From an uncultured Gammaproteobacteria bacterium (GTDB lineage: Bacteria; Patescibacteriota; Microgenomatia; UBA10105; UBA927), in assembly GCA_964527425.1 (NCBI GenBank), contig CAZGOA010000001.1, positions 20,842-84,841 of the forward strand: 64,000 bases of DNA. Direction: 5' to 3'. The notes under the pieces are model-generated. The model was not told where the DNA came from and did not search any database. It saw nothing but the letters and a program-made list of their open reading frames with translations. A program made the translations under genes and the position numbers. Of this stretch, positions 1-64,000 are shown piece after piece. Every line of letters starts with the position of its first letter. Positions within the stretch are counted from its first letter, which is position 1.

Positions 1-741
1 TTTTTCTACTTGAGGATATATTTCGTGTAATGTTTGTTGAAAACGGGAAGTACCCCACGTGTCTGCAATATGACCAATATCGCTGTGTAAATTGGGTGCA
101 AAATGCTTATACTGCTTCCACAAAAATGATGGTGTTGTTACAAAATATCCTAAATTCCATGCATGTTTTCCACTTTCCAGATATCTTTTTGCAGTTTCTT
201 TGTCAGGACGATATTGAAAATTCTTAAATGAATGAAATGAAATATTATTTAATGTTTTTTTAACTTCTCCATATTCTATCCATCCCAAATTTTCACTGGC
301 AAAGCGCGGTTTTTGACCAATAAATACTATTGTATTAGGAGATTTTGTAACTATTTCACCTGCTCTAGTAAGTAATTCTCTAAATAATGATTCTTTTTTT
401 ACTAAATGATCACTCCATAAAATTGCCATTGGTTCAGAAGGAGCAATTTTATTAAGAATAGCAGTTAATAATCCAACTGCAGGTCCTACATCTCTCATTG
501 CAGGTTCTCCGATAATATGTGCTGAAGGTAATTTTTCAAGTTGCTCTTTAACCAGATCCACATACTGAGCCCCGGTAGATACAAACATATGATCCCAATT
601 AAAATCAGGCTGAAGACGTTCAGCTGCTAATTGAAGTGTAGATTTATTTCCAAAAATTTTCTCAAATTGTTTCGGAGAATTCTTTCGCGATAAAGGCCAT
701 AGCCTAGTTCCTGCACCACCTGCAAAAATTATACAATTCAT
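1..741 (-). CDS. mannose-1-phosphate guanylyltransferase (nucleotidyltransferase domain); partial, runs off window start
   Basis: Reverse-strand translation from ATG at 741 reads 'MNCIIFAGGAGTRLWPLSRKNSPKQF...', the classic 'GGxGTRLWPLS' sugar-1-P nucleotidyltransferase signature. No stop before position 1, so it is absent from the ORF track. Confidence 0.75.
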   Translation of the reverse strand, partial: MNCIIFAGGAGTRLWPLSRKNSPKQFEKIFGNKSTLQLAAERLQPDFNWDHMFVSTGAQYVDLVKEQLEKLPSAHIIGEPAMRDVGPAVGLLTAILNKIAPSEPMAILWSDHLVKKESLFRELLTRAGEIVTKSPNTIVFIGQKPRFASENLGWIEYGEVKKTLNNISFHSFKNFQYRPDKETAKRYLESGKHAWNLGYFVTTPSFLWKQYKHFAPNLHSDIGHIADTWGTSRFQQTLHEIYPQVEK

Positions 742-795
742 AATTAATTTAGAATTAACGATATCTAATCACGATACAAACAATATAGATAGTAT

Positions 796-1935
796 TTATC
801 TACGTTCTTGTATGTTTTCAGTGTTATATTCTTTTAATACATTTGCAACAAATAATGAAATTTGTTTCTTAAATCTCACTATATCAAACTGACTCGCCTG
901 TTTTCTACACGCAACTGGATCATATGTTTCAAGGTGAAATTGAGATAACGCGTTAACTAAACACTCCACAGTCTGCTCTTCAAATACTTCCCCTGTCTTA
1001 CCTGGAATGATAATTTCTGCTATGCCACTTTTTTTGTAACACAATACTGGTTTCCCGGAGGCTTGAGCTTCTGCAGCAACTATTCCAAAATCCTCTTCCC
1101 CAGCAAACAAAAACGCTCTGCACTGTTGATAATATCGAGCTAATTCTTCTGTTGTCAATTTATTCCGTATAAATGTTACATTTTTGCCAGCTCTCTTAAT
1201 TAGCCGCTGAGCATCTTTTCCATCTCCAATGACAACTAAGGGAAGGTTAAGTTTTGTACAGGCATCAATTACTATATCAATTCGTTTATAAGACACAAGG
1301 CGAGATACAACTAAAAACGGTGCATGTTCAGTATTTGTTTTTTCTGCTAAAGGAAATGCTGACATAGTTACAGGTGGATAGATAACTGCATCGACTGTAC
1401 GCTTGTAAAATGACTCAATTCGATGAGACACTAAGTTTGATATAGCTATAAAGTAATCAGGCTTTTGCGCAGCATAAAAATCCCACTTTTTTAAAATGCT
1501 GTGTGATAAAGATAATACTATTTTTGATAACCAACTAAACCTACCAAGCCCGGGTTCTTGTTGATATGAGGTATATCCACTCCACAAATATCTGGTTGGT
1601 GTTAAACAATAACAAATATGTAACGTATGTGGTTTCGTAATAATCGTTTTTGCTTCTGCAGAAGTAATGCTTATAACCACATCAAACATATCAAAATTAA
1701 ACAATTCAAATCCAAGTGGAGTTAACCATGGAAATAACTCATGATGCCGTTTTGCACTAGGTATTCTTTGAAGAAAGGAGGTGTGGACTTTAAATACTTT
1801 TGCCCATGTAGCTTTTTGTTTATCATAAACAGCTGTATATAGTGGAGCATTTGGCCATACTTCATGCAATGCCAGTAATACTTGTTCTGCACCTCCAAAC
1901 TTATTTACTCGATCATATACAAGCGCTATTTTCAT
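796..1935 (-). CDS. glycosyltransferase family 4 (GT-B, retaining)
   Basis: C-terminal 'FLFAGEEDFGIVAAEAQASGKPVL...GIAEII' E-x7-E motif; 379 aa; ATGA overlap with the upstream gene. Confidence 0.8.
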   Translation of the reverse strand: MKIALVYDRVNKFGGAEQVLLALHEVWPNAPLYTAVYDKQKATWAKVFKVHTSFLQRIPSAKRHHELFPWLTPLGFELFNFDMFDVVISITSAEAKTIITKPHTLHICYCLTPTRYLWSGYTSYQQEPGLGRFSWLSKIVLSLSHSILKKWDFYAAQKPDYFIAISNLVSHRIESFYKRTVDAVIYPPVTMSAFPLAEKTNTEHAPFLVVSRLVSYKRIDIVIDACTKLNLPLVVIGDGKDAQRLIKRAGKNVTFIRNKLTTEELARYYQQCRAFLFAGEEDFGIVAAEAQASGKPVLCYKKSGIAEIIIPGKTGEVFEEQTVECLVNALSQFHLETYDPVACRKQASQFDIVRFKKQISLFVANVLKEYNTENIQERR

Positions 1936-3068
1936 AGAAAGCTGTTTTTCAACTCACCAACTTTGTTATAAATATCCAATGTCTTTTGAGCCATGGATTT
2001 CCAAGAAAATTTTTGAAAATACAATTGTTTTTCCTTTGCATCTTTCCATGGAGTTTTTTTACCTTTTTTAATAACATCTTTAATTTTTTCAAACCAATCA
2101 TGAGCACTATCCGGATCGAAAAATGCGGTAGAAGAAGGTAAAAGCTCTCTAAACACTGGGATATCTGAAACCAATATCTCACAATCTGCAGCAAGAGCTT
2201 CCAGTAAAGGAAGTGCGAATCCTTCTGCTTTTGAAGGAGAAAGTGTTATTAATGCTTTACTAAAATATTGAGCCAGCTGAATATCAGTAACATTTTCTGG
2301 AAACAAAAAGAGGTCGTCGAGATCTTTTGAGTGTACTTCGCTAACAAACTTCCTGAAAAAGTAATCATGAGGACCTATCATCATGATTTTCAAAGGAGCA
2401 ATGCTTTGAACTGGTATTTCTTTTTTAAATAATATGGCAATATCAATTAATAATTTTACGTTTTTATGAGGATACGTGTTGCCCACATATAAGATATATG
2501 GAACATGAATTAATTCGTTATTAGTTGAAACATTAAAAAAAACCTCATCAACTCCCTCTAATGTAACACTAATCGGATTTTTAATATTCCAGGTTTGAAT
2601 TACATCATGTTTTGTTGTTTCAGAAACCGCAATAATATGTTTAGACTTTTTTAAACCATTCTTTAATACAATTTGATATCCTATTTTTTTTAACCAGTAC
2701 AACGGGTAGGGCAACGTAGTCGCCTTGCCTGTATTAATTCTTAATATAGTTAGATCATGGATTGTTGTGATTATTGAATGGGAATAAAACAGTGGCACGG
2801 TAAAATATGGTACATGCAATATATCCAGTTTTTCACGGTAGTAAATTATTGGCAGTTCAAGTTGTTCTCGCAGTGTATGCCAGCGAGCACAAACATAATG
2901 AACACGCCAATTTGATTTGGGCAATTCAAATGGAAAAACTGTATCGTTAAGTACATACAATATATATTCGTTCTTTTTATCTATATTGATTAGCTCAACA
3001 ATAAGATGACGAATATAACGACCTACACCTGTTTCATTTATAAGTCGTGCATCAATTCCAATTTTCAT
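1932..3068 (-). CDS. glycosyltransferase family 4
   Basis: 'KAEGFALPLLEALAADCEILVSDIPVFRELL' GT4 C-domain motif; N-terminus 'MKIGIDARLINETGVGRY'. Confidence 0.8.
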   Translation of the reverse strand: MKIGIDARLINETGVGRYIRHLIVELINIDKKNEYILYVLNDTVFPFELPKSNWRVHYVCARWHTLREQLELPIIYYREKLDILHVPYFTVPLFYSHSIITTIHDLTILRINTGKATTLPYPLYWLKKIGYQIVLKNGLKKSKHIIAVSETTKHDVIQTWNIKNPISVTLEGVDEVFFNVSTNNELIHVPYILYVGNTYPHKNVKLLIDIAILFKKEIPVQSIAPLKIMMIGPHDYFFRKFVSEVHSKDLDDLFLFPENVTDIQLAQYFSKALITLSPSKAEGFALPLLEALAADCEILVSDIPVFRELLPSSTAFFDPDSAHDWFEKIKDVIKKGKKTPWKDAKEKQLYFQKFSWKSMAQKTLDIYNKVGELKNSFL

Positions 3069-3076
3069 ACAAACGT

Positions 3077-3979
3077 TTATAAGCCGAACTTTTTTACTAT
3101 AAAAAGTCTCATATTAATGATTGTTATTACAAATATTGTTAACAACGCAGAATATTTATTTTGATAATGTTTCTTATAAAATAATTTCATCGTTGAATAA
3201 AAATATTCTTTTGTTTTTTTTCTTGTTTCGAGGTTACTATTATTTCTGCCACTTTGCTTTTTTTTATGAAGTACCTTAGCTAAAGGCTCATACCATATCT
3301 CCCATCCATTTTCTTTTATTCTAAATGCCCAATCTAAGTCTTCACCATACATAAAAAACGCTTCATCTAGTACTCCCACCTGATCTATTACTTCTTTTCT
3401 AACCATAAAAAATCCACCACTAATCGCATCAACTTGATGAGCTGAATTCATTTGTTTATACCACTGGTGATACTGACTAAACATACTGCTATGAGGAAAT
3501 AAAGACTCCATACCCACAAAGTAACTGAAAGATGCCCATGGAGTTGGAAAACCACGATGACAGGCTGGATCTATATTTCCATTAGGAAGAAATAACTTAC
3601 TCCCCACCACCCCAATCTTTGATGAAGAATATAACTTTTTAAGGCAAACTTGTATTGCATCAGATTGTATTTCTGTATCAGAATTGAGTAATAACACTGT
3701 CTTTCCTAAAGCAATAGCTAAACCTTTATTATTGCCTGCCGAAAATCCATAATTATTATCAAGTGCAAGAATCCTTATCCAACTCTTATTGGCAGTGTAT
3801 TCATTAACTGAAGTCAAAAATTCTACACTGTCATCAGAAGATCCATTATCTACAATTATTATTTCCCATAAATCAGTGTTTTTTTTTGAATGAATAACAC
3901 TCTTTAAACACTCCAGAGTTAACTCTTTAGTATTATAATTTACAATAATAATCGACAACTCAAGATTTTTTTGACTCAT
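3077..3979 (-). CDS. glycosyltransferase family 2
   Basis: 'LSIIIVNYNTKELTLECLKSV...IIIVDNGSSDDS' and 'LLNSDTEI' DxD motifs. Confidence 0.8.
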   Translation of the reverse strand: MSQKNLELSIIIVNYNTKELTLECLKSVIHSKKNTDLWEIIIVDNGSSDDSVEFLTSVNEYTANKSWIRILALDNNYGFSAGNNKGLAIALGKTVLLLNSDTEIQSDAIQVCLKKLYSSSKIGVVGSKLFLPNGNIDPACHRGFPTPWASFSYFVGMESLFPHSSMFSQYHQWYKQMNSAHQVDAISGGFFMVRKEVIDQVGVLDEAFFMYGEDLDWAFRIKENGWEIWYEPLAKVLHKKKQSGRNNSNLETRKKTKEYFYSTMKLFYKKHYQNKYSALLTIFVITIINMRLFIVKKFGL

Positions 3980-5168
3980 ATTTTTTCCAAATAGCTTCTT
4001 GTATATCTGCTATATGTGACCAACTATATTTTTTTTCTACTATTTGCCTAGCGTTTCGTGTTATTTTTTTGACATTCACCGAATCATTACATAATGTTTG
4101 TATATTACCTATCCACTCATTTGTTGTATCTCCAATTAAAATTGAATGATTATGCTTAACATCTAATCCTTCAATTCCTTTTGTAGTCGAAATAACTGGA
4201 ACTCCTGCTGCCATTGCTTCTAAAATTTTATATTTAGTACCACCACCTATTGCTATTGGAGCAAATGACATATGTGCTTTTCTCAATACATCACGAATAT
4301 CATCTACATTTTCTGTTAACGTAACAGATGATGAGAGATATTTTTTGAACGCTTGTGGAAAATGTTGACCAACTAACTCAAGTGAAGCTTTTGGATAATT
4401 TTTTGAAATAACCGGCCAATATAATCGTAATAACGATTTAACAGCGTCTTGATTTTGAATCCATCTGAAATTGCCAATAAATACTGCATGAAAATCTTTC
4501 GGTATGACATTATTAGGCAAAAATTCAAACCAAATATCATCTACCCCATTGGGAACAACAGTTACATTATTAAATCCTTTACTGTTAATATATGCTTTAT
4601 CTGATAACGATACAGTAATTATTTGATCTGCATTTTCCCAAATGGTTTGTTCCCATTTTTTTATTTTATGCACATCATTTCGAAGAAAAGACTTCATTAA
4701 AGGTAACTTAAATCGTTGAATATAACCTTCATAAATCCTATGTTCAATATTATGTTCACTAACAATAAGAGGAAGATCTAATTGGGGTAATCCAGTAAAT
4801 ACATATCCAGGTTCAATATGTACTACATTAATCGATTCCTCACTGATTATCTGAGCAATACGTTTTTGGGCCATAGTATGATGATATGTTGCGTGTAAGA
4901 GTGATTTATTGGTAAATAACGATTTTGTTATATAACCAGGTTGCCATGCTGTTCCTCTCAGAATCGTTTCAATCCGATGGCAGAAAGATAATTCTTTACA
5001 GAATTTAGTTTCTTCCTCTGTCCGAATATACGATATTAGGGTAATGTTATGATGTTCTGATAGCCTTTTTAAGAGATTATAAAGACGTACCTGACCTCCC
5101 GAATACAACGGGAAGGGTAGTACTGCTGAAACAACAAGAATATTCATAGGTACATTAATTTGAAGCAC
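3960..5168 (-). CDS. glycosyltransferase family 4
   Basis: 'GGGTKYKILEAMAAGVPVISTTKGIEGL' GT4 C-terminal motif; 402 aa. Confidence 0.8.
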   Translation of the reverse strand: MLQINVPMNILVVSAVLPFPLYSGGQVRLYNLLKRLSEHHNITLISYIRTEEETKFCKELSFCHRIETILRGTAWQPGYITKSLFTNKSLLHATYHHTMAQKRIAQIISEESINVVHIEPGYVFTGLPQLDLPLIVSEHNIEHRIYEGYIQRFKLPLMKSFLRNDVHKIKKWEQTIWENADQIITVSLSDKAYINSKGFNNVTVVPNGVDDIWFEFLPNNVIPKDFHAVFIGNFRWIQNQDAVKSLLRLYWPVISKNYPKASLELVGQHFPQAFKKYLSSSVTLTENVDDIRDVLRKAHMSFAPIAIGGGTKYKILEAMAAGVPVISTTKGIEGLDVKHNHSILIGDTTNEWIGNIQTLCNDSVNVKKITRNARQIVEKKYSWSHIADIQEAIWKKYESKKS

Positions 5169-6663
5169 TATTTGGTTTTGTTAAATCAATAATCGCAAAT
5201 GTATCATTTCGAACAATAACTTCGTACTCTTCACTTAAAGCCTTAGTTTCTCCATCTGCATCAGTAGGAGATACGGTAACATAATGGGTTGCTCCCAGTT
5301 TAATTTTTTCTTCAATATCAAATCCAATAGGCCAACCTTGACGTTTAGTTTGATAAAGAAATGTTGTGTCACCATTGTACGGAGCTATTACTTTTGCATC
5401 CGGAGGTAATAAAGAATCTGCAACCTTTCCTGCTTCAACTATTTCAGGTCGGTTTATCCAATAAAATCCTCGAATTTCAAACCAGGAAAATGCCACAGTA
5501 AAGAGCACTATGAAAAGTAACACTATTGAGTTGCGGAGTTTAGCTATGAATGATCTTGGACTTATAAGATGTTCAATACCAAATCCTAAACATAAACTAA
5601 TTACAGGTAAAATTAACTGCTGGTAATAATCATGTTGCACATTTCCTCTTGCTATTACGATAAAAAACAATAGACTACCAAATAATAACGAATATACTAT
5701 CACCCATTTTTTTTGAATTGATAGTATTCCCAAAATAAATAGTGCTATCCCCCAATACCCTAATATTAATTTTGAAACTCGTTCAGCAAACAGCCAATGA
5801 AACCATGCACCTTTAAAGCGAAGATTTCCTTCATTGTATAACCAATTTGAAACCGGAATTCCTTCTGGAAAGAATACTATCCACTGTCTCCATACATAAA
5901 GAGGCACTATAGCTATGACAAAAAAGATTCCTAATAACACTGTAGATGTTAATACTTTTCTTGTAAAAGAACGATTTAACAATGGAAAAGCTGAAACAAT
6001 ATTCCATACACTCGTTATAAAAAGCAAAGGAAGAGGAATTAATAAAAATACTGCAAAAGGCTTTACTAATAATGCAAATGCTGCACTAAACGTACTGACT
6101 ATGAGTAAAAAAAGTGCACTGACACCATTACTTTTTGTAGATTTTAAAGAAGCAAATAGAGCAAGCAGACTCAAAAAGACCATTAATGGCTCCGGTAATA
6201 TAGATCGGCCATAAAAAAAACTATATGGCAATACGGCATACATGAATGCACTTCCTAATCCCACAATTGAATTCTTTAATTGTTTCCCTATGTAAGCCAA
6301 CAATATTATTGTACCTATACTTGCAGCGATACTTGTAAGTCTGAGTGCCTGCTCAATACTAACTTGAGGCAACATAGTATATAACCCGTACGCTATACTT
6401 TGGTACAACGGAAACTCAACCATTCTCCATCCTTCTAGGTTGTTTTTACCCGATTGAATGTTCGACAAATCATCATATCTGGGTCTGAAAGGATCAAACC
6501 CAAGATCTCTAAAATTTCTCGCAACTGCTGCTGTATCAGCCTGTCTCCAACTATGCCAATCGGCAATAGGATTACTAAACTTATAACTACGCACACTAAC
6601 TCCTAATGCAACGATAACACCTAAGAATAATATAAATACATGTTTTTTTAGAAATTTCATCAT
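5155..6663 (-). CDS. polytopic membrane protein, GT-C-like (ArnT/PMT_2-like) with C-terminal soluble domain
   Basis: About 11 predicted TM helices. Loop motif 'HSWRQADTAAVARNF' follows TM1. C-terminal ~100 aa are hydrophilic. The track start at 6672 is TTG; ATG at 6663 gives 'MMKFLKK' and is the more likely start. Confidence 0.5.
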   Translation of the reverse strand: MMKFLKKHVFILFLGVIVALGVSVRSYKFSNPIADWHSWRQADTAAVARNFRDLGFDPFRPRYDDLSNIQSGKNNLEGWRMVEFPLYQSIAYGLYTMLPQVSIEQALRLTSIAASIGTIILLAYIGKQLKNSIVGLGSAFMYAVLPYSFFYGRSILPEPLMVFLSLLALFASLKSTKSNGVSALFLLIVSTFSAAFALLVKPFAVFLLIPLPLLFITSVWNIVSAFPLLNRSFTRKVLTSTVLLGIFFVIAIVPLYVWRQWIVFFPEGIPVSNWLYNEGNLRFKGAWFHWLFAERVSKLILGYWGIALFILGILSIQKKWVIVYSLLFGSLLFFIVIARGNVQHDYYQQLILPVISLCLGFGIEHLISPRSFIAKLRNSIVLLFIVLFTVAFSWFEIRGFYWINRPEIVEAGKVADSLLPPDAKVIAPYNGDTTFLYQTKRQGWPIGFDIEEKIKLGATHYVTVSPTDADGETKALSEEYEVIVRNDTFAIIDLTKPNSASN

Positions 6664-6696
6664 AGATAGCAATTCAAGATAACAATGGTAATTAAA

Positions 6697-10520: not shown

Positions 10521-11135
10521 CTATTGAAACAAACGAGAAAATTTGAGGGTATATCGTAAATCTGTTGATCTTTTTTTTATTTCTTTAGCGGGAACACCTC
10601 CCACAACACTATATTCATCTACATCTTTGGTTACTACAGCTCCGGATGCGATAACAGCACCTTTTTTAATAGTTACACCAGGTAAAATTGTGACACGCGA
10701 ACCTATAACAACATAATCTTCAATTTTGACTGGTGCTCCAATTTCTGCAAAATAAGGATCATCAATATCATGCTCCATACTATATATTCTTACTTCACCT
10801 GCTATTGAAACGTTATTTCCAATTTGTATGGATCTCTGTGGCGGATTAATAAAATCCTTTAAATACCTTGCCATTTTATTTTTGTAAGAGGAAGTATGAT
10901 TATCAGACCAAGTTCGTTTAAATCTGCCATCTAGAAACGCATCATTACCGATAATAGTATTTGAACCAATTTCGATTCCACTGGGTAGATTAAATCGAGC
11001 CAACCAATGTATTGATGAGTCACGACCGATCTTTATTCTAAAAATATGCCTATAAAGAAATAAACGTATAGTATGACTCGGAATAATTCCAGTTAAGGTT
11101 GCAAGATAAACCCAAAAATCAATAAAAAATCTCAT
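10521..11135 (-). CDS. sugar O-/N-acetyltransferase, left-handed beta-helix (hexapeptide repeat)
   Basis: '[46 protein letters not shown]' hexapeptide repeats. Confidence 0.75.
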
Positions 11136-15076: not shown

Positions 15077-15109
15077 AGTGATATGTATTATAACCTTGGT
15101 AGTATCTTT

Positions 15110-16141: not shown

Positions 16142-16145
16142 TTAT

Positions 16146-28353: not shown

Positions 28354-28414
28354 AATAGACGGTTTTCTATTTATTTAATTGCTCTTCTTTAATTTTAGAA
28401 GTATTATTGCACTT

Positions 28415-54939: not shown

Positions 54940-56589
54940 CTATTTTTTTAATAATCGTTTTTTGATAAAGGGAACACTTACCAATAAAACTAATCCAAAC
55001 ATACCAACTAAAGACATACTATTAGCAACACTTCTTAATTTTGTATCTGTATAAATAATTTCAATATCATGCTCACCAGGTTCTAACCAGAATGTCATTC
55101 TTCCTCTCCAATTAGGATCCTGAAATTCAATTGGTATTTGAGTTCCATTATCTATAATAATCCACCCTGGAAAATAAAGTGTATTTTCAACAAATCTAGT
55201 TCGTTCAATAACGTGTATATTGTATGTTCTCTTTGTAGAATTTCTGAAAAGCATTTCAATCGTCGCATTTCCATCTATTATCTGTAATGGTGCGATTGCT
55301 TCTGATTCCATAAAACGCACAGACCAAATAGGACTACTTTCTCCAGTATCAGTTGTTCCATGATAAATATTTGTAAAAAAAGAATCATCGTATAGTCGAT
55401 ATTCTTTTGGTTTCCACATTTGATACGTTGTAATGATCAACATAATAATAGTAAATACTAGTACTAATTGTTGCTTTTTTTCTGAAATGAATGAACATGC
55501 AAATCCACCTATTGCTGATGTTACGAAAACGGTAATAGTTAAAAGTCGCCAGGGAAACTGAAATTTTTGAAGGATTGTTACCGTATTCCAAACAGGAATA
55601 GACCATTCAGTCATAAGAAATAATGATCCAGCAAAAACTCCTAACATTGCAAAACCAAATATTCTTTTTTTCATTTTTTTTGTTGTGATGACGATGTACA
55701 TAGTACTTACTACGAACATCCATTGAATTATTCCTACCTCTTTTGAAAATTGAGCTCCCCCTCCATAATTCCAGGGTGAATATATAAACGATAACGGATT
55801 AACCATTCGGGTTATCACCTCGCCCTGAGTGACAATATCTCTAAGCGTATACTTACCTTCCAAAAAAGCAGGCATTAAGAAAAATGAAGACAAAAGCACA
55901 CCCAATACAGTTCCTATACCTATATAGAGACTACTTTTATACCGATGTTTAGTTTCAAAAAAAACTAAATATATAGAATATAGGAAACCGATAGGAATCA
56001 TCATCAGACTAACAGCATTATGAGAAAGAAGTAATCCTGCAACTGAAAGAGCAAGTAGACTTATCCAAATATGTTTTTTAGAATTTTTTATTAACCCATC
56101 AAGAGCAAACAATATTAATGGAATAAACACAAAAGCTACATGTTCTCCTATTGCTCCTCTAACAGTTAAATCCACGAATCGATACGGAGCAAAAGTGTAC
56201 AAAAAACCTGCAATCAAACCAGCAGTAGTTCCCCATCTGCCTTTTGCCCAATAATACATACTAAATCCACTTAACAAATAGCTTACTGCAAACACTAATT
56301 TTGTACTGCTAAGTATGGAAAATCCTAAAACATGAAACAATGAAGCAACATAAGAAGGTAAGGGATATAAAAACATTACTACAGGATGGCCAAATCCCCA
56401 ATTTAAATTACCAGCCCATCTTGGTACTATATTTCCTTCACTTAAAGACTGATAAAAATTAGCAATCCGAACTACATGATCTTGCCCATCATGAGTAACG
56501 GGCAATCCTGGAACAAGCAAATGCGCTATAGGTAATAGTAATAGCAACAATAATAATACTGGTATATATTTCATTACTTTACCATCCAT
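54940..56589 (-). CDS. GT-C-like membrane protein, 'THDGxxH...PRW' family, paralog 2
   Basis: 'PVTHDGQDHVVRIANFYQSLSEGNIVPRWAGNLNWGFGHP', 'APYRFVDLTVRGAIGE', C-terminal 'LYFPGWIIIDNG...EFQDPNWRG' plus a terminal TM. Confidence 0.55.
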   Translation of the reverse strand: MDGKVMKYIPVLLLLLLLLPIAHLLVPGLPVTHDGQDHVVRIANFYQSLSEGNIVPRWAGNLNWGFGHPVVMFLYPLPSYVASLFHVLGFSILSSTKLVFAVSYLLSGFSMYYWAKGRWGTTAGLIAGFLYTFAPYRFVDLTVRGAIGEHVAFVFIPLILFALDGLIKNSKKHIWISLLALSVAGLLLSHNAVSLMMIPIGFLYSIYLVFFETKHRYKSSLYIGIGTVLGVLLSSFFLMPAFLEGKYTLRDIVTQGEVITRMVNPLSFIYSPWNYGGGAQFSKEVGIIQWMFVVSTMYIVITTKKMKKRIFGFAMLGVFAGSLFLMTEWSIPVWNTVTILQKFQFPWRLLTITVFVTSAIGGFACSFISEKKQQLVLVFTIIMLIITTYQMWKPKEYRLYDDSFFTNIYHGTTDTGESSPIWSVRFMESEAIAPLQIIDGNATIEMLFRNSTKRTYNIHVIERTRFVENTLYFPGWIIIDNGTQIPIEFQDPNWRGRMTFWLEPGEHDIEIIYTDTKLRSVANSMSLVGMFGLVLLVSVPFIKKRLLKK

Positions 56590-57013
56590 ATTCTGAAAAG
56601 ATTATCTGTTTATTTACACAGTCAATAGCGTATTTAATATAAGTTATTGTGTTAGATGGAAGAGAATTTAATTGAAAAAACTGCAAATCATCACATTTGT
56701 TAGGTTCTGCATTAATGATTTCTCCTTTCCACTTTAAGCATCTAAAGAAAAAATCTACTCGCTCGTCATCTTTTTTTCTATGCATTACGTGTACTAACTG
56801 TAAATCTTCAGGCTGTATATGAAGGCCAATTTCTTCCTTAATTTCTCTGCAGGTGCCTTTCCTGATAGGTTCTCCTTGTTCCATATGACCTGCAGGAACA
56901 CTATATTTTCCATCTTCATATCCTGTTTGAAATCGTCGAGAAAGCAAAATAGTATTATTGACTATGTGTAATAAATATCCGGATATAATAACTTTATGAC
57001 GATTTACATGCAT
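56579..57013 (-). CDS. NUDIX hydrolase
   Basis: Nudix box 'GHMEQGEPIRKGTCREIKEEIGL' (GX5EX7REUXEEXGU). Confidence 0.8.
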   Translation of the reverse strand: MHVNRHKVIISGYLLHIVNNTILLSRRFQTGYEDGKYSVPAGHMEQGEPIRKGTCREIKEEIGLHIQPEDLQLVHVMHRKKDDERVDFFFRCLKWKGEIINAEPNKCDDLQFFQLNSLPSNTITYIKYAIDCVNKQIIFSEYGW

Positions 57014-57019: not shown

Positions 57020-58645
57020 TTAGTGAGAAATAAGCATTGCAACTGTACCATCTAAATAATAAACAGTTTTTAATGTTCCTTCATTCATTTCTATAGGTGC
57101 ACCTAAATAAAGCGTCTTTTTATCTCTTTTTTCTTTATCCCACTGGAGAGTCCTGAACTCAAATTTATCAAACTTATTAAAACGCTCCGCAAAACTTCCT
57201 GAAACTGTTCCACCTTCTTCTAGATACTTTTTTGGATCATATTTTAGATAAAATAAGAAGAACATGTGTGGTTGTTCAAGTTTTGTAGAAACAACTATTT
57301 TGTCATAATCATCATAACGCTCCATGACAAAAGGAATAGCCTCTTTGTATCCGTATTGCCAAAAATTTGAAAATTCTTTATTCTGATGAACAAAATACAT
57401 CACTAGATAATAGGAAACATTAAATAGATAACTTCCTATAAATACTGCGAGAACAAAAGCTGTAACATATTTTCGAAAGGTACTTATATATACCAGAAAG
57501 TGCAAGATACCCAATCCAATTACTATTTGAAAGGTAGGCAAAAACACTAACGTTCTTATAGCATGAGGCAATTCTGTAGTAGGAGATGCCGCAATAGGAG
57601 CTATTAACATCCAGGCAAGTACTAATTTACCAGCTTGTCTTCCGTATCTTATTAAAAAAAATAATCCGATAAATAAAAATGGTAACTCGATATGATATAA
57701 CAATCCCATTCCAGGGGCATGATGACGAGGATTATCTCCAGTTAAGAACAACCAATTTAATGAAAAACTAGATAAATATCCTGAAAGCAATGTCTGTGCG
57801 AAAACAATTCTACGATTATCTAAAATTTTACCAAGTAAATTATTTGTAGTCTGATTTCTTTCCAGTTTAATTACTGATCGTTCTAATAATCTCGTTTGAT
57901 CAGCAAGAGCACTGGTTCCTCGAAGTCTTGTTAGTGTAGATGAATCTGTTAATACAGGAATTAATGGTCCTATTGTTAACAAACCAACGACAGTTGCTAT
58001 TAATACTGACTTCCATTTTTTTATTACCATATTAAAAAACACACAACCCAATACTATTACTAATAGTGGAGAAAAAATTCTCTGGCTGTGATAGGCATAT
58101 ATTGAAAGACTAAATAAAAATGCTGATAACGAAAAAAATATTCCTTTCTTTAAACCCCATAAAAAACTTACTACTGCCCAAATAGTTACAGTAAGCCCTA
58201 TTCCTGCCTCAAATGCCATACGCGAAAATTGTAAATGCCACGGGGATATTGCAAGTAGCAATGAAACAATAAATGGTAAATACTGAAATTTAGTGCTCTT
58301 TGAAAAATAGCTAACAAGTTCTTTCGTAAGAAAATACGTTCCAATTACTGCTAATACACCCATGACGACAGCAGGTAATCGAACAGACCAAATATCTAAT
58401 CCAAACATCCACATACTAGGAACCGTTAAATACATATATAACGGTGGTTTATAATCATCATAAGAGCGAAGTGAAAGTGGAAACCAATTACCATATTCAT
58501 CTCTTCCAGTTTTCAGTATCGAATAGGCATTATACCCTAAAGCAGCTTCATCCCAATTAGGTCCGGGGGGAACGATCCCAAGATTCCATAATCTTAAAAT
58601 TGTAGCGAGTAAAATAATAAAACCTAATACAATATAATTCTTCAT
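57020..58645 (-). CDS. PMT_2/ArnT-family GT-C glycosyltransferase (GT39/GT83-like), tandem paralog A
   Basis: 'LRLWNLGIVPPGPNWDEAALGYNAYSI...RLPAVVMGVLAV'; C-terminal soluble domain. Confidence 0.7.
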   Translation of the reverse strand: MKNYIVLGFIILLATILRLWNLGIVPPGPNWDEAALGYNAYSILKTGRDEYGNWFPLSLRSYDDYKPPLYMYLTVPSMWMFGLDIWSVRLPAVVMGVLAVIGTYFLTKELVSYFSKSTKFQYLPFIVSLLLAISPWHLQFSRMAFEAGIGLTVTIWAVVSFLWGLKKGIFFSLSAFLFSLSIYAYHSQRIFSPLLVIVLGCVFFNMVIKKWKSVLIATVVGLLTIGPLIPVLTDSSTLTRLRGTSALADQTRLLERSVIKLERNQTTNNLLGKILDNRRIVFAQTLLSGYLSSFSLNWLFLTGDNPRHHAPGMGLLYHIELPFLFIGLFFLIRYGRQAGKLVLAWMLIAPIAASPTTELPHAIRTLVFLPTFQIVIGLGILHFLVYISTFRKYVTAFVLAVFIGSYLFNVSYYLVMYFVHQNKEFSNFWQYGYKEAIPFVMERYDDYDKIVVSTKLEQPHMFFLFYLKYDPKKYLEEGGTVSGSFAERFNKFDKFEFRTLQWDKEKRDKKTLYLGAPIEMNEGTLKTVYYLDGTVAMLISH

Positions 58646-58648: not shown

Positions 58649-60343
58649 TTATTCAAACACTGTTAACACTTCTGTTCCATTTAATAATGTAATATGTTTG
58701 ATCACTGTGGCATCCATTGGTTTTAAATGAGGTGGCAGCACATACAAAACACGTCCTTCTAATACTGGCACTTCACCATCTACAAATGTATATTTTCCAA
58801 AACCTTTTACTTTATAAAATCCTGCCGCATCAAAGAAAGATATTTTTGACTCCCAAAATTCCTGTGGTGAATACTTGCCATAAAATAATGCATACATATA
58901 TGGTCTACCGATTGTCTCTGAAACAACTATATGATCATATCTATCTTTCAATGATTCTGTAACTTCCAGGGCCTGCTTGTATCCATATTGCCATTCACCA
59001 GAGAATTCATACGGATAATGAGCATAATAATTATGAAGATAGAAAACTATAAGTGCTGCATACATTAATACAAGATTCAGACCATAGAAATATTTAACAC
59101 TCTTTCTTTTTAAGATGTCCCATACAGAAATAATACCTACACCAATAGCTATATGCCATGTTGGAAGTGTATTCAATATTCGTAATGCATGCGGAGTTTC
59201 TCTAGCAACACCAGCTGGTACGATAGCTAATAATAACCATCCCAATAAGAGTATACCTATTTTTACATTCATTGAAAAAATCACATACCATCCAATCGCC
59301 AAAAATACAACTTCTATGATGTAGAATTGACCAGTATCCTGAATCGAAAATTTTGGATTACCGTCTCCTTTAATAAATAGAAATGATGGATCAAAATGAT
59401 CTAAATAGTGTTTCAAATACGAAATACCATACCCTACTCTTCTATTATTAAGTACGTTTGCCCACCAACTGTTTCCGGCATGCTCTATCCTGGCATTTGC
59501 TGTAGTTACAATAAGTGGATCAGAAAAAATATTTACCTCTTTAAAACGAAGTCTTGCCTCGGGCGATAATAAATGTGGTAACAAAGGCAACATAAATATA
59601 CTTGCAATAAAAATACTTACCACTAATCTCATAACTGTAATGTTCATCGAAGTATTTAGTGATTTTGATTTACTTTTAAAAACCGATTTACGTATCGCCG
59701 AAAAAAACATCTGAAGCTCTTTACCATATGTAAACCACAGCAGAAGTAATGCAAAAAAAGGTAGAAAATACCGAGCACTATTAAATGTATACATAGCGGC
59801 CACAAATGGAAGCCACATCAGTAACTGTAATTTTGGTTTATTCTTTGAACTAAGGATGATCAATACACCCAAAACAACAAAAAAAAGCGCTATAACAGCT
59901 TCAAAACCCGCCCTTGATAGATTAATATGCCAGGGTGATACAGCTAACACTGCTGCAGATAATAAAGCAAATCTATGAGGAAACTTATATGAACTGAACA
60001 GTACCATAACCAATGCGTACGTCAATAAAACTGTAAGAGTACTTACTATCACTACTGGTAAACGTACAGATAATTCATTAAGTCCCAATAAACCTACAAA
60101 AGGAGCAGTTAGATAGATAGAAACTGGTGGTTTATAGTCACCATAAGCAATAAATGTATCTAGTGGTAAAAACCTTCCATGTTCATCTTTTCCAGTATTC
60201 CAAATGCTCCAAGCATTATAACCAATAGAAACCTCATCCCATGTCAATGCTGGCGGGATATCTGTAATTTTATAAAAACGTAATAAAAAAGCGACACAGA
60301 TTATTATTATGAGTAGAAACCTTGTTTTTGATAAATCTTTCAT
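58649..60343 (-). CDS. PMT_2/ArnT-family GT-C glycosyltransferase, tandem paralog B
   Basis: 'LRFYKITDIPPALTWDEVSIGYNAWSI...RLPVVIVSTLTV'. Confidence 0.7.
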   Translation of the reverse strand: MKDLSKTRFLLIIIICVAFLLRFYKITDIPPALTWDEVSIGYNAWSIWNTGKDEHGRFLPLDTFIAYGDYKPPVSIYLTAPFVGLLGLNELSVRLPVVIVSTLTVLLTYALVMVLFSSYKFPHRFALLSAAVLAVSPWHINLSRAGFEAVIALFFVVLGVLIILSSKNKPKLQLLMWLPFVAAMYTFNSARYFLPFFALLLLWFTYGKELQMFFSAIRKSVFKSKSKSLNTSMNITVMRLVVSIFIASIFMLPLLPHLLSPEARLRFKEVNIFSDPLIVTTANARIEHAGNSWWANVLNNRRVGYGISYLKHYLDHFDPSFLFIKGDGNPKFSIQDTGQFYIIEVVFLAIGWYVIFSMNVKIGILLLGWLLLAIVPAGVARETPHALRILNTLPTWHIAIGVGIISVWDILKRKSVKYFYGLNLVLMYAALIVFYLHNYYAHYPYEFSGEWQYGYKQALEVTESLKDRYDHIVVSETIGRPYMYALFYGKYSPQEFWESKISFFDAAGFYKVKGFGKYTFVDGEVPVLEGRVLYVLPPHLKPMDATVIKHITLLNGTEVLTVFE

Positions 60344-61662
60344 GATATTTGATCAGAACGTATTATCTGTTCTTCATAATGAAATAACACACCAAGAATA
60401 AAAATTGTCGATAAAAACGCAATATGACTATTATTAAAATACCTACTGAAATACCAAATAATAAAAAGAAACACACCGTAGGATAAGAAGAGTTTAGAAA
60501 TTGATGGTTTTTTTCGTATCCAGAGTAGTAATAAGCCTAATACGGGTAATCCCAGACCTAACTGAAATATTGTAAACGGAAAGTAGTCTTTAATGTTGCC
60601 TATAAATCCGTGTTCAAACAGTATCATACTAAAACCATATCCAGAAACAGGATATCCTGTTTCTCCACCAGCACTCAAGTACAAAATCACACTATTAATA
60701 AAAGCTTGAGCATCCCATAGTAAAAAAGGCAACATTATTACTACTGCAGTACTCACGGCGATACATACATAAAAAACAAATTGTATTGTTCTGCTATTAT
60801 GAAACTTTAACCTTTTTATTAAAAGTTTTTTATTAGAGTAATGAGGAATTCCTAAAGCCAACCAAACATAGTAAATCCAAAATGGAAAAGCAAACCAAAG
60901 TGTCTGTTTTGACATCAAACCCAAACCGATTGATATTGCTGATAATACAATTCTTTTATTGTGTAATAAATAAACTGCATAAACTAACCACAATAAAGCA
61001 AATGTATCACTTCTTCCTTCTATAAAATAATGAGTAACTGCTGGAGACAGTGCTACTAGAATAATAGATATCTCTTTTAACACTGGATCTTTAAACCACC
61101 TCCATAAAACTACAATAATTCCAGTTAAAGCTATGAGCGATACTAATCTCACATCAAAGAATCCCAATGTTCGATTAGCTATCCAATAAACAGGAAATGG
61201 AAATAATAGATACCACGGAGGCATTACAAAATGGTATAACGCAGGATTTACTGCATCTTTACCTAATTCTGAGTATCTAAATAATTCAACAGGTGTATTA
61301 AAATAGGTTTCTTTATAGGGATTTTTACTTTGATGCAGATAACGCATAGCTGCTTCAAGCTGAAGTACAATGTCATGAGTACCCCATTGCGGTGCAATTT
61401 TATGCCGATCAATAATTGCAGTGTACGTAGTTCCTCCTATCACTATACTTAATACGATAATTAATAATACAAAGGATATTCGTCTATTCCACATACCAAA
61501 AGTACGTGGGTAAATATCAATGAATACTTTTCCAATTAAAGTAAAAAAAACTATGCCAAATAATGTGTATGGAGTTGTTTCAACAGGCCATATTCTAAAG
61601 TGCATAATCACAGGTATAGATAATGCAAAAAGTAGAATTGCCGGTATTGCAGAAAACGTCAT
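60340..61662 (-). CDS. polytopic membrane protein (GT-C-like candidate, family unassigned)
   Basis: 440 aa, about 11 TM helices, 'GRSDTFALLW...GLMSKQTLWFAFPFW'. Confidence 0.4.
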   Translation of the reverse strand: MTFSAIPAILLFALSIPVIMHFRIWPVETTPYTLFGIVFFTLIGKVFIDIYPRTFGMWNRRISFVLLIIVLSIVIGGTTYTAIIDRHKIAPQWGTHDIVLQLEAAMRYLHQSKNPYKETYFNTPVELFRYSELGKDAVNPALYHFVMPPWYLLFPFPVYWIANRTLGFFDVRLVSLIALTGIIVVLWRWFKDPVLKEISIILVALSPAVTHYFIEGRSDTFALLWLVYAVYLLHNKRIVLSAISIGLGLMSKQTLWFAFPFWIYYVWLALGIPHYSNKKLLIKRLKFHNSRTIQFVFYVCIAVSTAVVIMLPFLLWDAQAFINSVILYLSAGGETGYPVSGYGFSMILFEHGFIGNIKDYFPFTIFQLGLGLPVLGLLLLWIRKKPSISKLFLSYGVFLFIIWYFSRYFNNSHIAFLSTIFILGVLFHYEEQIIRSDQIS

Positions 61663-61680
61663 AGGTGTATTGTACTAAAA

Positions 61681-61709: not shown

Positions 61710-61723
61710 AGAATAGGATTCTC

Positions 61724-63397
61724 ATGAAATCATTATATTTACTTTTTTTTATTATCATACTCTCTCTTCTGCCTTTTGTAAGCATTTTTACCACAAATCA
61801 ACTACCTCATACGAGTGATGGTGGAGTTCAAATACCGCGTATGGCAGCATTCTACACAGCGCTCAAAGATGGACATATTCCTGTTAGATGGGCAGGCGAT
61901 CTCAATTATGGATACGGATTGCCCCTATTTAATTTTATCTATCACACTCCTTTTTTTATTTCTTCATTTCTAATTTGGCTGGGAATCGGGTTAATAGATT
62001 CCTTTAAATTACTTTTACTTATCAGCTTTCTTCTTTCTGGTATATTTATGTTTCTTTTCTCTTCTGTTTTTTTCAAAGATACAAAAACTGCATTGTTTGT
62101 AACGATGCTCTATCAATTTGCACCATATAGATTAGTAGAGATATTAACCAGAGGAAGCATTGGAGGTATATATGCGTATACATTTTTACCACTCATGTTG
62201 TGGTGTATTGTATTAGTCTGGAATAAAGCAACTATTTATCGAATATTGGGTATTATAATAGCAGGTGGTTTGCTTATTCTTTCACACAACGCTTTAGCAC
62301 TATTGTTCTTTTTTTGTGTAGTGCTGTTTATATTATTAATGGGACCAAATAAACCATCTAAGTATTATTCTTTGTTCGGAGTATTGGGTAGCTTGGGTTT
62401 ATCTTCATATTATTGGATTCCTGCACTTTTTGAACACAAATACACCTATGGTGATTTATTTATGAAAGATTTATATCTTTCACATTTTCCTGAAATAGTT
62501 AAATTTTTTATTCCAAATCTTATCAATGCTCAAAATCTTCGAGTTGCTGAAATAAATATACACATAGGAATAATACATACAGTTGTGTTTATAATTGCGT
62601 GCCTCGTATTGATAACAACAAAACAAATGTTATCTCTACGAAATTTTATTAAGGAACCTCGCAATAGACTATTGGTTTATTCAATAAGTATATTTTTTTT
62701 GAGTATATTCTTTATGTCACGATTTTCAGTATTATTCTGGCAACATATTTCGTTTCTAAGACAATTTCAATTTCCATGGCGATTTCTTGCGCTCACTGTA
62801 TTTTCAACTTCACTCATGGGCTCGTTTGTCATGAGTATTCGTTTATTTAGACAACGCTATATTTTTGTTCTTTTATTACTTTTAACAATCGTTCCAACGC
62901 TCTATTATTGGCGTCCACCGCAAGGATACACCTATGGTGCAACTGACGAAAAATTTTGGAACTATCCACTAAATACTACCTATTTCGGTGAAACAGATGT
63001 AATTTGGTCAGCTGGTCCTGCAACATCATACCCGCCTTCTCGTATTCAAATAGTAGATGGAAACGCCCAAATCAGTAACTTTTCAAAAAAAACACATCAA
63101 CAATTTTTTACTGTAGAAGCAATAATTCCTTCAACTATCGTTAGCAACACACAATACTTTCCAGGATGGAAAGTATATGTAGACGATCAACTTGTTCCCA
63201 TAGAATTTCAAGATCAGAATTGGAGAGGACTTATTACCTTTGCAGTTCCACAAGGTATTCATCAAGTTAAGATACTATTTAAAGAAAGTAAAATTAGAAT
63301 CCTTGCTGATTGCATTACGCTTGGAACAATAGTCATTATGGGAATCTCACTTCTTGCGTCTACTCGATTAAAACGTCTCACGAGGAAAAATGTATGA
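61724..63397 (+). CDS. GT-C-like membrane protein, 'THDGxxH...PRW' family, paralog 3
   Basis: 'PHTSDGGVQIPRMAAFYTALKDGHIPVRWAGDLNYGYGLP', 'APYRLVEILTRGSIGG', C-terminal 'QYFPGWKVYVDDQLVPIEFQDQNWRG' plus a terminal TM. Confidence 0.55.
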   Translation: MKSLYLLFFIIILSLLPFVSIFTTNQLPHTSDGGVQIPRMAAFYTALKDGHIPVRWAGDLNYGYGLPLFNFIYHTPFFISSFLIWLGIGLIDSFKLLLLISFLLSGIFMFLFSSVFFKDTKTALFVTMLYQFAPYRLVEILTRGSIGGIYAYTFLPLMLWCIVLVWNKATIYRILGIIIAGGLLILSHNALALLFFFCVVLFILLMGPNKPSKYYSLFGVLGSLGLSSYYWIPALFEHKYTYGDLFMKDLYLSHFPEIVKFFIPNLINAQNLRVAEINIHIGIIHTVVFIIACLVLITTKQMLSLRNFIKEPRNRLLVYSISIFFLSIFFMSRFSVLFWQHISFLRQFQFPWRFLALTVFSTSLMGSFVMSIRLFRQRYIFVLLLLLTIVPTLYYWRPPQGYTYGATDEKFWNYPLNTTYFGETDVIWSAGPATSYPPSRIQIVDGNAQISNFSKKTHQQFFTVEAIIPSTIVSNTQYFPGWKVYVDDQLVPIEFQDQNWRGLITFAVPQGIHQVKILFKESKIRILADCITLGTIVIMGISLLASTRLKRLTRKNV

Positions 63398-64000
63398 AAC
63401 TAAAAAATGTATTTATGCGATACTTTCCAATATTCGTACTTGTATGCATTACGATCCTCTTTTTTTATAAATCGTTTTTTAAAGGCTATATACCTTTTCC
63501 TGGTGACCTACTCATTGCAGAATATCAGCCTTGGAAGTCATTTCAGTTTGAAGGATACAATCCAGGAAGTTTTCCCCATAAAGCACAATATTTTGATACA
63601 ATTCGTCAATTATATCCCTGGAAATTTTTTAGCATTGAAGAACTTAAAGCTGGTAGGTTACCACTTTGGAATCCTCATAATTTTTCTGGTGCCCCATTAT
63701 TTGCAAATCTTCAATCGGCTCTTCTCTATCCAACAACCCTACTATTTTTAGTATTTCCATTTAACCTCAGTTGGACTCTATCTGTTATTCTTCAACCGTT
63801 AATTGCCGCACTGTTTACCTATGTTTTTGCGAGAAGGTTACAGTTTTCTAAATCAGCTTCACTTTACTCTAGTATCGCATATGGATTTTCTTTATATATG
63901 ACTGTATTTCTTGAATATAATACTATTGGTCACGTCATTTTATGGCTTCCTGCGATTCTTTTCTGTATCGAAAGTTATTTTCAATTTAAAAAGAATCGTT
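63394..64000 (+). CDS. YfhO-like polytopic membrane protein (GT-C candidate); partial, continues past window end
   Basis: My translation from ATG 63394 in frame 1 is 'MKLKNVFMRYFPIFVLVCITILFFYKSFFKGYIPFPGDLLIAEYQPWKSFQFEGY...'. It has no stop to position 64000 and overlaps the upstream stop by ATGA. The track ORF 63407..63751 is in another frame. Confidence 0.5.
   Translation, partial: MKLKNVFMRYFPIFVLVCITILFFYKSFFKGYIPFPGDLLIAEYQPWKSFQFEGYNPGSFPHKAQYFDTIRQLYPWKFFSIEELKAGRLPLWNPHNFSGAPLFANLQSALLYPTTLLFLVFPFNLSWTLSVILQPLIAALFTYVFARRLQFSKSASLYSSIAYGFSLYMTVFLEYNTIGHVILWLPAILFCIESYFQFKKNR

Follow-up and report, generated by a model that had tools for sequence, protein, structure and literature searches.

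A chromosomal surface-glycan island of a Microgenomates-type bacterium that appears to interleave a phosphoglycosyltransferase/Wzx pathway with a battery of GT-C glycosyltransferases

The structure and assembly of the cell envelope of bacteria of the candidate phyla radiation (CPR) have been described as unknown (PMC5220378, PMC6744442), and the envelope itself as Gram-positive-like and unresolved (PMC6744442). CPR bacteria live attached to other cells and, therefore, their surface is central to their biology. A 64-kb stretch of contig CAZGOA010000001.1 (GenBank assembly GCA_964527425.1), here called the window, i.e., the whole stretch of DNA that was analysed, is made up almost entirely of genes for glycan synthesis and poses the question of which surface polymer would be made from it, and by which chemistry. 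From the families and folds of the gene products, the flanks, the synteny and the mosaicism among strains that we observed, we consider it fairly probable that the window is the central part of a chromosomal surface-glycan island of at least 74 kb of a Microgenomates-type CPR bacterium, in which a heteropolysaccharide pathway with a phosphoglycosyltransferase (PGT) and a Wzx flippase is interleaved with a battery of membrane glycosyltransferases (GTs) of the GT-C type that use polyprenyl-phosphate sugars.

The 54 genes of the window are tightly packed; most neighbouring open reading frames (ORFs) adjoin directly or share a few bases, and 45 of the 49 ORFs of at least 150 aa lie on the minus strand (coordinates below refer to that strand unless marked plus). 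Three small ORFs, for a membrane protein of 74 aa, a cupin of 128 aa and a NUDIX hydrolase of 144 aa, occupy the only real gaps; one gene is truncated at each edge and the G+C content is 31.6%. All ORFs were scanned against Pfam and many also against NCBIfam, which yielded 18 cytoplasmic GTs, nine of them complete GT4 (orf1, 2, 4, 9, 20, 23, 27, 37, and 41) and nine GT2 (orf3, 7, 18, 22, 33, 35, 38, 40, and 44), plus one GT4 N-domain fragment (orf10). By hydropathy, 17 proteins are polytopic, the partial ORF at the right end included: one Wzx/MOP flippase and 16 proteins of the GT-C type, which together occupy ~9,150 codons or ~43% of the window DNA (~1 gene per 4 kb). About 15 further genes encode nucleotide-sugar or modification enzymes, comprising ManC, GalE, a WecB-type 2-epimerase, an FnlA/CapE-like dehydratase, a split CapF-like pair, a GFO/IDH/MocA oxidoreductase, two DegT proteins, three further short-chain dehydrogenases/reductases (SDRs), two hexapeptide acyltransferases, a NodU/CmcH-type carbamoyltransferase, an S-adenosylmethionine (SAM)-dependent methyltransferase and the NUDIX hydrolase. 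An earlier note on this DNA had counted about 17 cytoplasmic GTs and at least 15 GT-C-type enzymes, and both counts are borne out, the latter by Pfam scores, paralogy, profiles and predicted folds. Its statement that every gene serves glycan synthesis holds for nearly all of them, the exceptions being an ornithine carbamoyltransferase (orf21) and the 74-aa membrane ORF, which has no family.

The first question is whether the polytopic proteins are indeed GT-C enzymes. In the scan with hidden Markov models (HMMs) one polytopic protein (orf39) is a MOP flippase. Scores above the Pfam gathering score were obtained for orf5 (5155-6672; PMT_2/GT39-like, 28.8 bits, cutoff 26.1; nine transmembrane (TM) segments), orf36 (44443-45783; PMT_2, 42 bits), orf45 (54940-56589; YfhO/PTPS_related, YfhO 32.5 bits, cutoff 28.5) and orf47 (58649-60343; PMT 27.2 bits, cutoff 22.7, and PMT_2 28.0 bits, cutoff 26.1), and also for the full-length form of the 753-aa YfhO protein of which the N-terminal 202 aa are encoded at the right edge (63394-64000, plus; 88 bits for the full gene in a flank contig). 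Strong paralogy by BLASTP adds the YfhO-like orf42 (50653-52272; 29% identity over 524 aa, E 9e-59) and orf49 (61724-63397, plus; 33% over 564 aa, E 3e-83), both related to orf45 (E 1e-58 to 1e-83), the PMT-like orf46 (57020-58645; 32% over 564 aa to orf47, E 1e-65), and orf32 (40158-41864), which is 47% identical to orf31 (38449-40161). Curated GT-C scores were below cutoff for orf42, for orf19 (23271-26330; GT-C_AftD 21.8 bits, cutoff 26), a 1019-aa AftD/YfhO-like protein that is anchored by a C-terminal TM segment and carries a large extracytoplasmic domain, and for orf48 (60340-61662; GT87 18.1 bits, cutoff 25), a probable GT87/ALG3-like enzyme; in one distant genome the gene directly upstream of the orf47 homologue, i.e., at the position of orf48, likewise has weak GT87 and ALG3 matches. 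As single sequences, orf16, 17, 31, 32, 46, and 49 matched no curated GT-C model, and a relaxed Pfam scan (E up to 10) produced noise. The GT-C-type proteins contain 7-21 hydrophobic segments each, as counted by a crude Kyte-Doolittle scan and no trained predictor, to be compared with the ~8-13 TM helices by which GT-C enzymes are recognized.

For several of these proteins family profiles were more informative. No match was found for orf43 (52269-53417) in our local Pfam copy; precomputed tables assign it, and likewise all of its 120 listed relatives, to PF26314 (MptA_B_family), while TIGR03459 (MptA) matches it weakly (25.9 bits, E 4e-6), far under the cutoff of 439. Judged from these matches, orf43 is a family-level relative of MptA/MptB and not an equivalog. 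For orf17 (20285-22249), an exhaustive HMMER search recovered 2,184 representatives. A profile built from 43 of them matches two structures of mycobacterial AftD, 6w98 and 6wbx (E ~3e-6), six of the 43 match YfhO, and in a search of 49 proteins the profile links orf19 (E 7.8e-13), orf45, orf49 and orf42 (range E 8e-13 to 3e-8), pointing to an AftD/YfhO-like GT-C. Most members of this family start with a TM helix and run ~20 aa longer; orf17 and its closest relatives lack the helix, and the invariant GD(W/A)PF motif of orf17 thus stands at the very N-terminus with no TM segment before it.

Two families have no Pfam model. For orf16 (18430-20292) 40 homologues were found, with distant ones in Herbinix (Clostridia), and none of the 40 carries a Pfam domain, while the orf31/orf32 family has just eight homologues among 5.8e9 proteins. 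PDB searches with the single sequences of orf31, orf16, orf19, and orf6 returned nothing meaningful and those with the orf16-family and orf31-family profiles gave no match; for that reason fold prediction was applied to these two families out of the 16 GT-C-type ORFs. The AlphaFold (AF2) model of orf16, computed from the homologue alignment, has a pLDDT of 88.6 and a pTM of 0.92, and in a Foldseek search of the PDB its top 18 matches are all GT-C enzymes (DPY19, AglB, STT3, AftA, PglB, ArnT, AftD), after which the probability drops from 1.0 to at most 0.12. The predicted fold of orf31 is also GT-C, with the protein O-mannosyltransferases Pmt4 and Pmt2 nearest. These predictions give structural support to two GT-C families, those of orf16 and of orf31/orf32, for which current databases contain no model.

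In the family alignments, conserved Asp or Glu residues stand near the protein start or in an early loop: D134 in at least 90% of the orf16 family, and the invariant D13 (orf17 family), D56-E57 (orf31 family) and D106 (orf43 family). HD/WDE motifs occur after TM1 in orf36, 42, 45, 46 (WDE), and 47. From the hydropathy profiles we infer that these acidic residues face outside. The 992-aa orf6 (6697-9675) is a two-module case. Its N half is Wzy_C/O-antigen-ligase-like (Wzy_C 24.8 bits, below the cutoff of 31.7; IctB-like 29 bits) and its C half, predicted to be a PMT_2-like GT-C module, is matched by the orf31-family HMM at aa 584-714 (E 4.8e-9 in the 49-protein search), which is a weak case. 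Such a putative fusion of Wzy_C-like and GT-C modules is an architecture not known to us from descriptions. Taken together, the matches, paralogies and models argue that the GT-C richness of the window is real.

Which donors would these enzymes use? Two GT2 proteins resemble polyprenyl-phosphate-sugar synthases over the whole catalytic domain. The 227-aa orf40 (48959-49642) matches the DPMS of Pyrococcus furiosus (5mlz) over aa 4-205 at E 7.7e-19 and ArnC at E 6e-15, with AglJ, PpgS and ArnC as best NCBIfam matches, and orf38 (46925-47731) matches the same DPMS at E 3e-14 and ArnC at E 1.4e-11. For the remaining GT2s, as judged for orf33 and from the best NCBIfam matches, the similarity is confined to the N-terminal part that is generic to GT-A enzymes. 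The idea that all GT2s beside GT-C genes are GtrB-like synthases was ruled out in this way for orf33, and for orf3, 7, 22, and 35 by their best NCBIfam matches. The DPM1-like synthases that had been proposed for this locus are, therefore, present, although their predicted number is two rather than many, and so is the proposed flippase, orf39 (47721-48962; Polysacc_synt 42.7 bits, cutoff 28.2). That both DPMS-class synthases are encoded in one conserved core together with GT-C genes (see below) lends indirect support to polyprenyl-phosphate sugars as the putative donors of the GT-C enzymes.

The second question is whether the island depends on such donors alone, and the flanks bear on it. They were recovered by exact-protein look-up from contigs 99.9-100% identical to the window ends (at the left end over 10-12 kb of the window). 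The truncated gene at the left edge (1-741) encodes the N-terminal 247 aa of the 360-aa ManC (mannose-1-phosphate guanylyltransferase), for which the full gene in the flank contig contains the NTP_transferase and ManC beta-helix domains. It is followed, ~350 bp beyond the window edge, by a 212-aa Bac_transf phosphoglycosyltransferase (Bac_transf 204 bits; WbaP/EPS sugar-transferase domain 251 bits) and an adjoining 674-aa DUF4012 protein (L095, 11430-13454), ~1.1-3.1 kb beyond window position 1. The DUF4012 family is enriched in CPR and Gram-positive bacteria and has been linked to capsular polysaccharide and exopolysaccharide (CPS/EPS) loci, such as the CPS/EPS cluster of Bifidobacterium longum with which the island shares this protein (PMC6744442). 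In the island the protein might take the place of the Wzz-type component, which is missing. Further left, RecO, GlyRS, MraZ, RsmH and a penicillin-binding protein (dcw cluster) mark ordinary chromosome, so that the left end of the island lies ~3.7 kb left of the window. To the right, the 753-aa YfhO protein is followed by two PMT/PMT_2 proteins (566 and 555 aa) and the end of the contig. With the flanks counted, the island thus spans at least ~74 kb with at least 18 GT-C-type genes, and its right border lies beyond the recovered contig. An origin as mobile element or plasmid was rejected in view of the RecO/GlyRS/dcw flank, the absence of tRNA genes from the window, and the lack of any transposase seen.

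These flanks also revise two claims of the earlier note. It had reported that no initiating PGT, Wzz or Wza is present, which is correct for the window, but the lack of a PGT is a window-edge artefact; no Wzz or Wza (Poly_export) match was obtained among the ORFs of the window or of its flanks (3.7 kb on the left and 6 kb on the right). It had further proposed a system driven by polyprenyl-monophosphate sugars. The monophosphate part appears to stand, given orf38, orf40 and the GT-C enzymes, but the system is not purely of that kind: because the flank PGT, Wzx, the Wzy_C-like module and 16 ordinary GT2/GT4 enzymes are present, a conventional diphosphate pathway would also be encoded.

In which organism does this island occur, and how much of it is conserved? 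The named homologues of orf43 (42-47% identity) come from Microgenomates group bacterium GW2011_GWC1_43_11, Ca. Gottesmanbacteria and a Patescibacteria group bacterium, i.e., all from Patescibacteria, and the gene order from orf47 to orf37 is kept in two distant genomes, GCA_000998865.1 (Microgenomates group bacterium GW2011_GWC1_43_11) and GCA_023379025.1. The suspicion voiced before that the organism may be CPR-like is supported by this synteny with CPR genomes and by the orf43 homologues, both of which point to a Microgenomates-type member of the Patescibacteria. That the organism is probably monoderm, as the earlier note also proposed, is a suggestion based on the literature (PMC6744442). 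The stretch orf37-orf47 (~45.8-60.3 kb) forms a lineage-wide core. Apart from orf38, orf39, orf40, orf42, orf43 and orf45-orf47, it consists of the GT4 genes orf37 (45795-46916) and orf41 (49646-50656) and orf44 (53421-54938), a GT2 with two TM segments and a DUF5667 domain, so that two polyprenyl-phosphate-sugar synthases, two GT4s, Wzx, the GT2-DUF5667 protein and MptA_B, YfhO-like and PMT-like GT-C enzymes stand together. Best conserved in the two distant genomes are the two synthases (60-66% identity; orf40 64-66%, orf38 60-63%), followed by orf46 (55%) and by orf37 (49-51%) and orf45 (both ~50%), with 37-47% for the rest. At the position of orf36, which adjoins the core, one distant genome has a PMT_2 gene after the orf37 homologue and the other a GT2.

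Outside the core the island is, by sequence comparison, strain-variable and mosaic. Homologues of the non-core genes were mostly not seen beside the core in the two distant genomes, and the lowest G+C is found among them (0.298 at 17-44 kb vs. 0.33-0.40 in the housekeeping flank). In a sister species 21.7 kb are colinear with the window at 77% nucleotide identity. The identity of strain SRR7051042 to the window jumps from ~100% at 0-10 kb to 67-73% at 44-46 kb, 87-92% at 48-61 kb and 99% at 62-63 kb, and related strains carry an extra gene for a 536-aa weak-PMT_2 (GT-C) protein at ~48,965, between the orf40 and Wzx homologues (L088, 14463-16073; L099). The identity jumps and the extra gene indicate recombination and gene gain or loss within the island, a mosaic pattern as would be expected of a recombining surface-antigen locus.

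How, then, could the two pathways work? In the first, the small WbaP/PglC-type PGT left of the window would start a lipid-diphosphate route, in which the 16 ordinary GT2/GT4 enzymes, working on the cytoplasmic side, would assemble an oligosaccharide with polyprenyl diphosphate as its carrier. Its sugars may come from GalE, from an FnlA/CapE-type L-FucNAc-like route and from 3- and 4-aminosugar routes, with modification by acetyl-, carbamoyl- and methyltransferases; export of the product would fall to the MOP/Wzx flippase, and its polymerization or ligation to the Wzy_C-like module of orf6. In the second, ManC would make GDP-mannose, orf38 and orf40 would load sugar on polyprenyl phosphate, probably mannose for at least one of them, and, after flipping, at least 16 GT-C enzymes of the PMT/PMT_2, YfhO/AftD-like, MptA/B, GT87-like and the two unmodelled families would transfer single sugars at the outside of the membrane. 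This logic would be that of actinobacterial lipomannan/lipoarabinomannan (LM/LAM) assembly, protein O-mannosylation and YfhO-type polymer glycosylation. A basal lipoglycan or wall glycopolymer rich in mannose is the probable product of the core orf37-orf47, and the strain-variable remainder would decorate or replace the exposed glycan. Which sugars are used, which acceptors (lipoglycan, wall polymer or protein) receive them and in which order the steps follow is inferred here.

A close parallel is the assembly of LM/LAM and arabinogalactan in Corynebacterineae (Ppm1; PimE; MptA, MptB, and MptC; AftA-D; Emb), where a GT2 polyprenyl-phosphate-sugar synthase also feeds a GT-C battery that extends a glycan outside the membrane, with GT4s and a GDP-mannose supply (ManC) alongside. 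A likeness to mycobacterial assembly had been suggested by the GT-C density, and it extends to the families, since MptA_B, AftD-like, PMT and GT87-like members all occur. However, the enzymes share very little identity with their mycobacterial counterparts and score under the curated cutoffs, and no decaprenyl-phosphate-arabinose pathway was seen in the island; moreover, the genes lie in one island rather than dispersed, in a small-genome CPR host, and are combined with a PGT/Wzx pathway.

Several observations weigh against the interleaved reading. Neither orf38 nor orf40 has the C-terminal TM helices of GtrB and ArnC, and no small flippase of the GtrA/GtcA type was detected by Pfam in the window, whose single small membrane ORF (74 aa) could be assigned to no family. 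Also the primer route anchored in phosphatidylinositol (PimA/PimB-type GT4, the GT87 enzyme PimE, phosphatidylinositol synthase) was not found in the window: neither a phosphatidylinositol synthase nor a PimA-specific GT4 was recognized, the GT4 matches being generic only, and the GT87 score of orf48 is sub-threshold, as are the scores on which the Wzy/ligase status of orf6 is based. Finally, each of the two pathways may have a product of its own.

The main rival explanation is that the GT-C battery serves mainly to O-glycosylate proteins of the surface, such as type IV pilins or S-layer proteins, and not to make a lipoglycan or wall polymer. The PMT-type enzymes would then O-mannosylate Ser/Thr, and the Wzy_C module of orf6 would be a PglL/PilO-like O-oligosaccharyltransferase for the oligosaccharide exported by Wzx. 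The Wzy_C family indeed also includes PglL and PilO, and TfpW of P. aeruginosa is a GT-C enzyme that glycosylates pilin. With actinobacterial and eukaryotic protein O-mannosylation (Ppm1/DPM1 plus PMT) the island shares the D-E motif after TM1 of its PMT/PMT_2 members, six in number with the flank included, and the proximity of the orf31 fold to Pmt4 and Pmt2; in addition, type IV pilus genes are enriched in CPR genomes (PMC6744442). However, the PMT_2 matches are generic to ArnT-like enzymes, the known acceptors of the MptA/B, AftD-like and YfhO families are glycans or teichoic acids and not protein, and the island enzymes, with their many paralogues, have no MIR domains and no known acceptor, no pilin, S-layer or Ser/Thr-rich acceptor gene being found in the window or the recovered flanks. 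We consider it unlikely that protein is the main target.

Less likely still, and in our view quite improbable, is that the locus is a set of independent three-component modules (GtrB/flippase/GT-C), each adding one side-chain sugar to a teichoic-acid-like polymer made elsewhere, as with CsbB/YfhO of Firmicutes. Such an arrangement would fit the pairs of GT2 and GT-C genes at orf7-orf6, orf18-orf17/19, orf33-orf32, orf35-orf36, orf44-orf43/45 and in the orf40-orf42 region as well as the strain-specific extra GT-C gene, and the known systems (GtrA/GtrB/GtrC; CsbB/GtcA/YfhO; ArnC/ArnE-F/ArnT) share with the island DPMS/ArnC-class GT2s together with YfhO-family and ArnT/PMT_2-type GT-C enzymes. 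In contrast to these systems, the island shows no GtrA/GtcA-type flippase, its synthases are without the C-terminal helices, and they number two against at least 16 GT-C enzymes; resemblance to such synthases is limited to orf38 and orf40, the neighbouring GT2s being generic, and the island's own PGT, Wzx and many GTs suffice for a backbone.

The least probable alternative is a plain large capsule or O-antigen-like Wzx/Wzy cluster without monophosphate-sugar chemistry, in which the polytopic proteins are Wzy, ligases and acyltransferases, since, although the island shares with Gram-positive O-antigen/capsule/EPS loci a small Bac_transf PGT, many ordinary GT2/GT4 and rare-sugar, acetyl- and methyltransferase genes, a MOP flippase, a Wzy_C-like protein, low G+C in mid-island and strain mosaicism, it is ~3 times their usual size, shows no Wzz/PCP, tyrosine kinase, Wza or LytR-CpsA-Psr genes (Wzz and Wza were not found in the window or recovered flanks), has two DPMS-class synthases as its most conserved core genes, and contains, where normally one or two Wzy/ligase proteins occur, at least 16 GT-C-type genes that such a cluster, which the earlier note had named as the finding that would overturn its view, leaves unaccounted for as Wzy or WaaL and that match the PMT, YfhO, MptA_B and AftD families or folds.

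If the reading of two interleaved pathways is adopted, the biochemistry is known and its setting new: all enzyme classes are known and no new principle is involved. Unusual are the GT-C density, the combination of PGT/Wzx with an LM-like GT-C battery in one island of a small-genome bacterium, the orf6 fusion and the two unmodelled GT-C families. In the literature searched on CPR/Patescibacteria with GT-C, YfhO and PMT, clusters of this kind were not described. For a Saccharibacterium, glycolipids that resemble PIM have been proposed (PMC6031116), and for a whole Parcubacterium genome 20 glycosyltransferases were reported (PMC5220378), fewer than this one island holds. The island, therefore, offers specific candidate genes both for variation of the surface among strains and for a basal surface polymer of CPR bacteria. 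More tentatively, Microgenomates-type CPR bacteria could build a lineage-defining envelope polymer almost wholly outside the membrane, i.e., a mannose-rich LM/LAM-like glycan made by at least 17 GT-C enzymes from one island with a hypervariable, recombining outer part, a possibility that we regard as doubtful at present. Were it true, it would provide the first concrete genetic handle on the CPR cell envelope, and the hypervariable outer part would set strain-specific surface identity, which would serve host attachment or phage evasion.

The remaining GT genes are mostly of ordinary type. GT4 enzymes are encoded by orf1 (796-1935; Glycos_transf_1, 88 bits), orf2 (1932-3068; Glycos_transf_1, 64 bits), orf4 (3960-5168; Glyco_trans_1_4, 68 bits; TIGR03087-like, 170 bits), orf9 (11139-12266; Glycos_transf_1, 128 bits), orf20 (26248-27435), orf23 (29418-30572, plus) and orf27 (33922-35097). 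Directly upstream of the complete GT4 orf9 lies orf10 (12263-12874), a 203-aa GT4 N-terminal domain alone (Glyco_transf_4 only, 34.5 bits), of which the first 40 residues are 57% identical to orf2 and which, from this similarity, is probably a remnant of a duplicated GT4. The GT2 genes are orf3 (3077-3979; Glycos_transf_2, 85 bits; one C-terminal TM segment by hydropathy), orf7 (9647-10513; Glycos_transf_2, 93 bits), orf18 (22246-23274; Glycos_transf_2, 47 bits; a C-terminal TM segment), orf22 (28379-29425, plus; two C-terminal TM segments), orf33 (41868-42896; C-terminal TM segments) and orf35 (43584-44438).

Sugar supply and modification are served by a hexapeptide O-acetyltransferase (orf8, 10521-11135; Hexapep; WcaF family, 79 bits), UDP-glucose 4-epimerase GalE (orf11, 12858-13850; TIGR01179 380 bits, cutoff 262), a sugar-nucleotide dehydratase/decarboxylase-like SDR (orf12, 14126-15124; Epimerase, 186 bits; under all NCBIfam cutoffs), a GFO/IDH/MocA oxidoreductase resembling UDP-GlcNAc 3-dehydrogenase (orf13, 15065-16141, plus), a DegT-family sugar aminotransferase (orf14, 16116-17252, plus; 376 bits), an RfbH-like DegT-family enzyme (orf15, 17241-18410; DegT, 220 bits), a non-hydrolysing UDP-GlcNAc 2-epimerase (orf24, 30565-31680; WecB/CapG-like; TIGR00236 243 bits, cutoff 210), an FnlA/CapE/PseB-like UDP-GlcNAc 4,6-dehydratase (orf25, 31685-32722; Polysacc_synt_2, 327 bits; FnlA 417 bits, below cutoff), a hexapeptide acyltransferase (orf29, 36884-37459), an Fcl-like SDR epimerase/reductase (orf30, 37456-38433), the SAM-dependent methyltransferase (orf34, 42893-43615) and the 144-aa NUDIX hydrolase (56579-57013; 52.9 bits). 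The 74-aa ORF (13898-14122), in one of the few intergenic gaps, has two or three hydrophobic segments.

In the L-FucNAc-type route, the CapF-like enzyme is divided between two genes (32725-33910), a 271-aa SDR reductase/epimerase gene (orf26, 33095-33910), like the N-terminal part of CapF, and an overlapping gene for the 128-aa cupin (32725-33111), like its C-terminal part, and the same split occurs in the sister species. The ornithine carbamoyltransferase orf21 (27436-28353; TIGR00658 412 bits, cutoff 281), which is not a glycan enzyme as such, lies 7 kb from the NodU/CmcH-type carbamoyltransferase orf28 (35094-36878; Carbam_trans_N and Carbam_trans_C), and its closest relatives in species genomes are at most 52% identical and belong to mixed bacterial and archaeal phyla. 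It might supply carbamoyl phosphate locally, through phosphorolysis of citrulline, for sugar O-carbamoylation in an organism of reduced metabolism.

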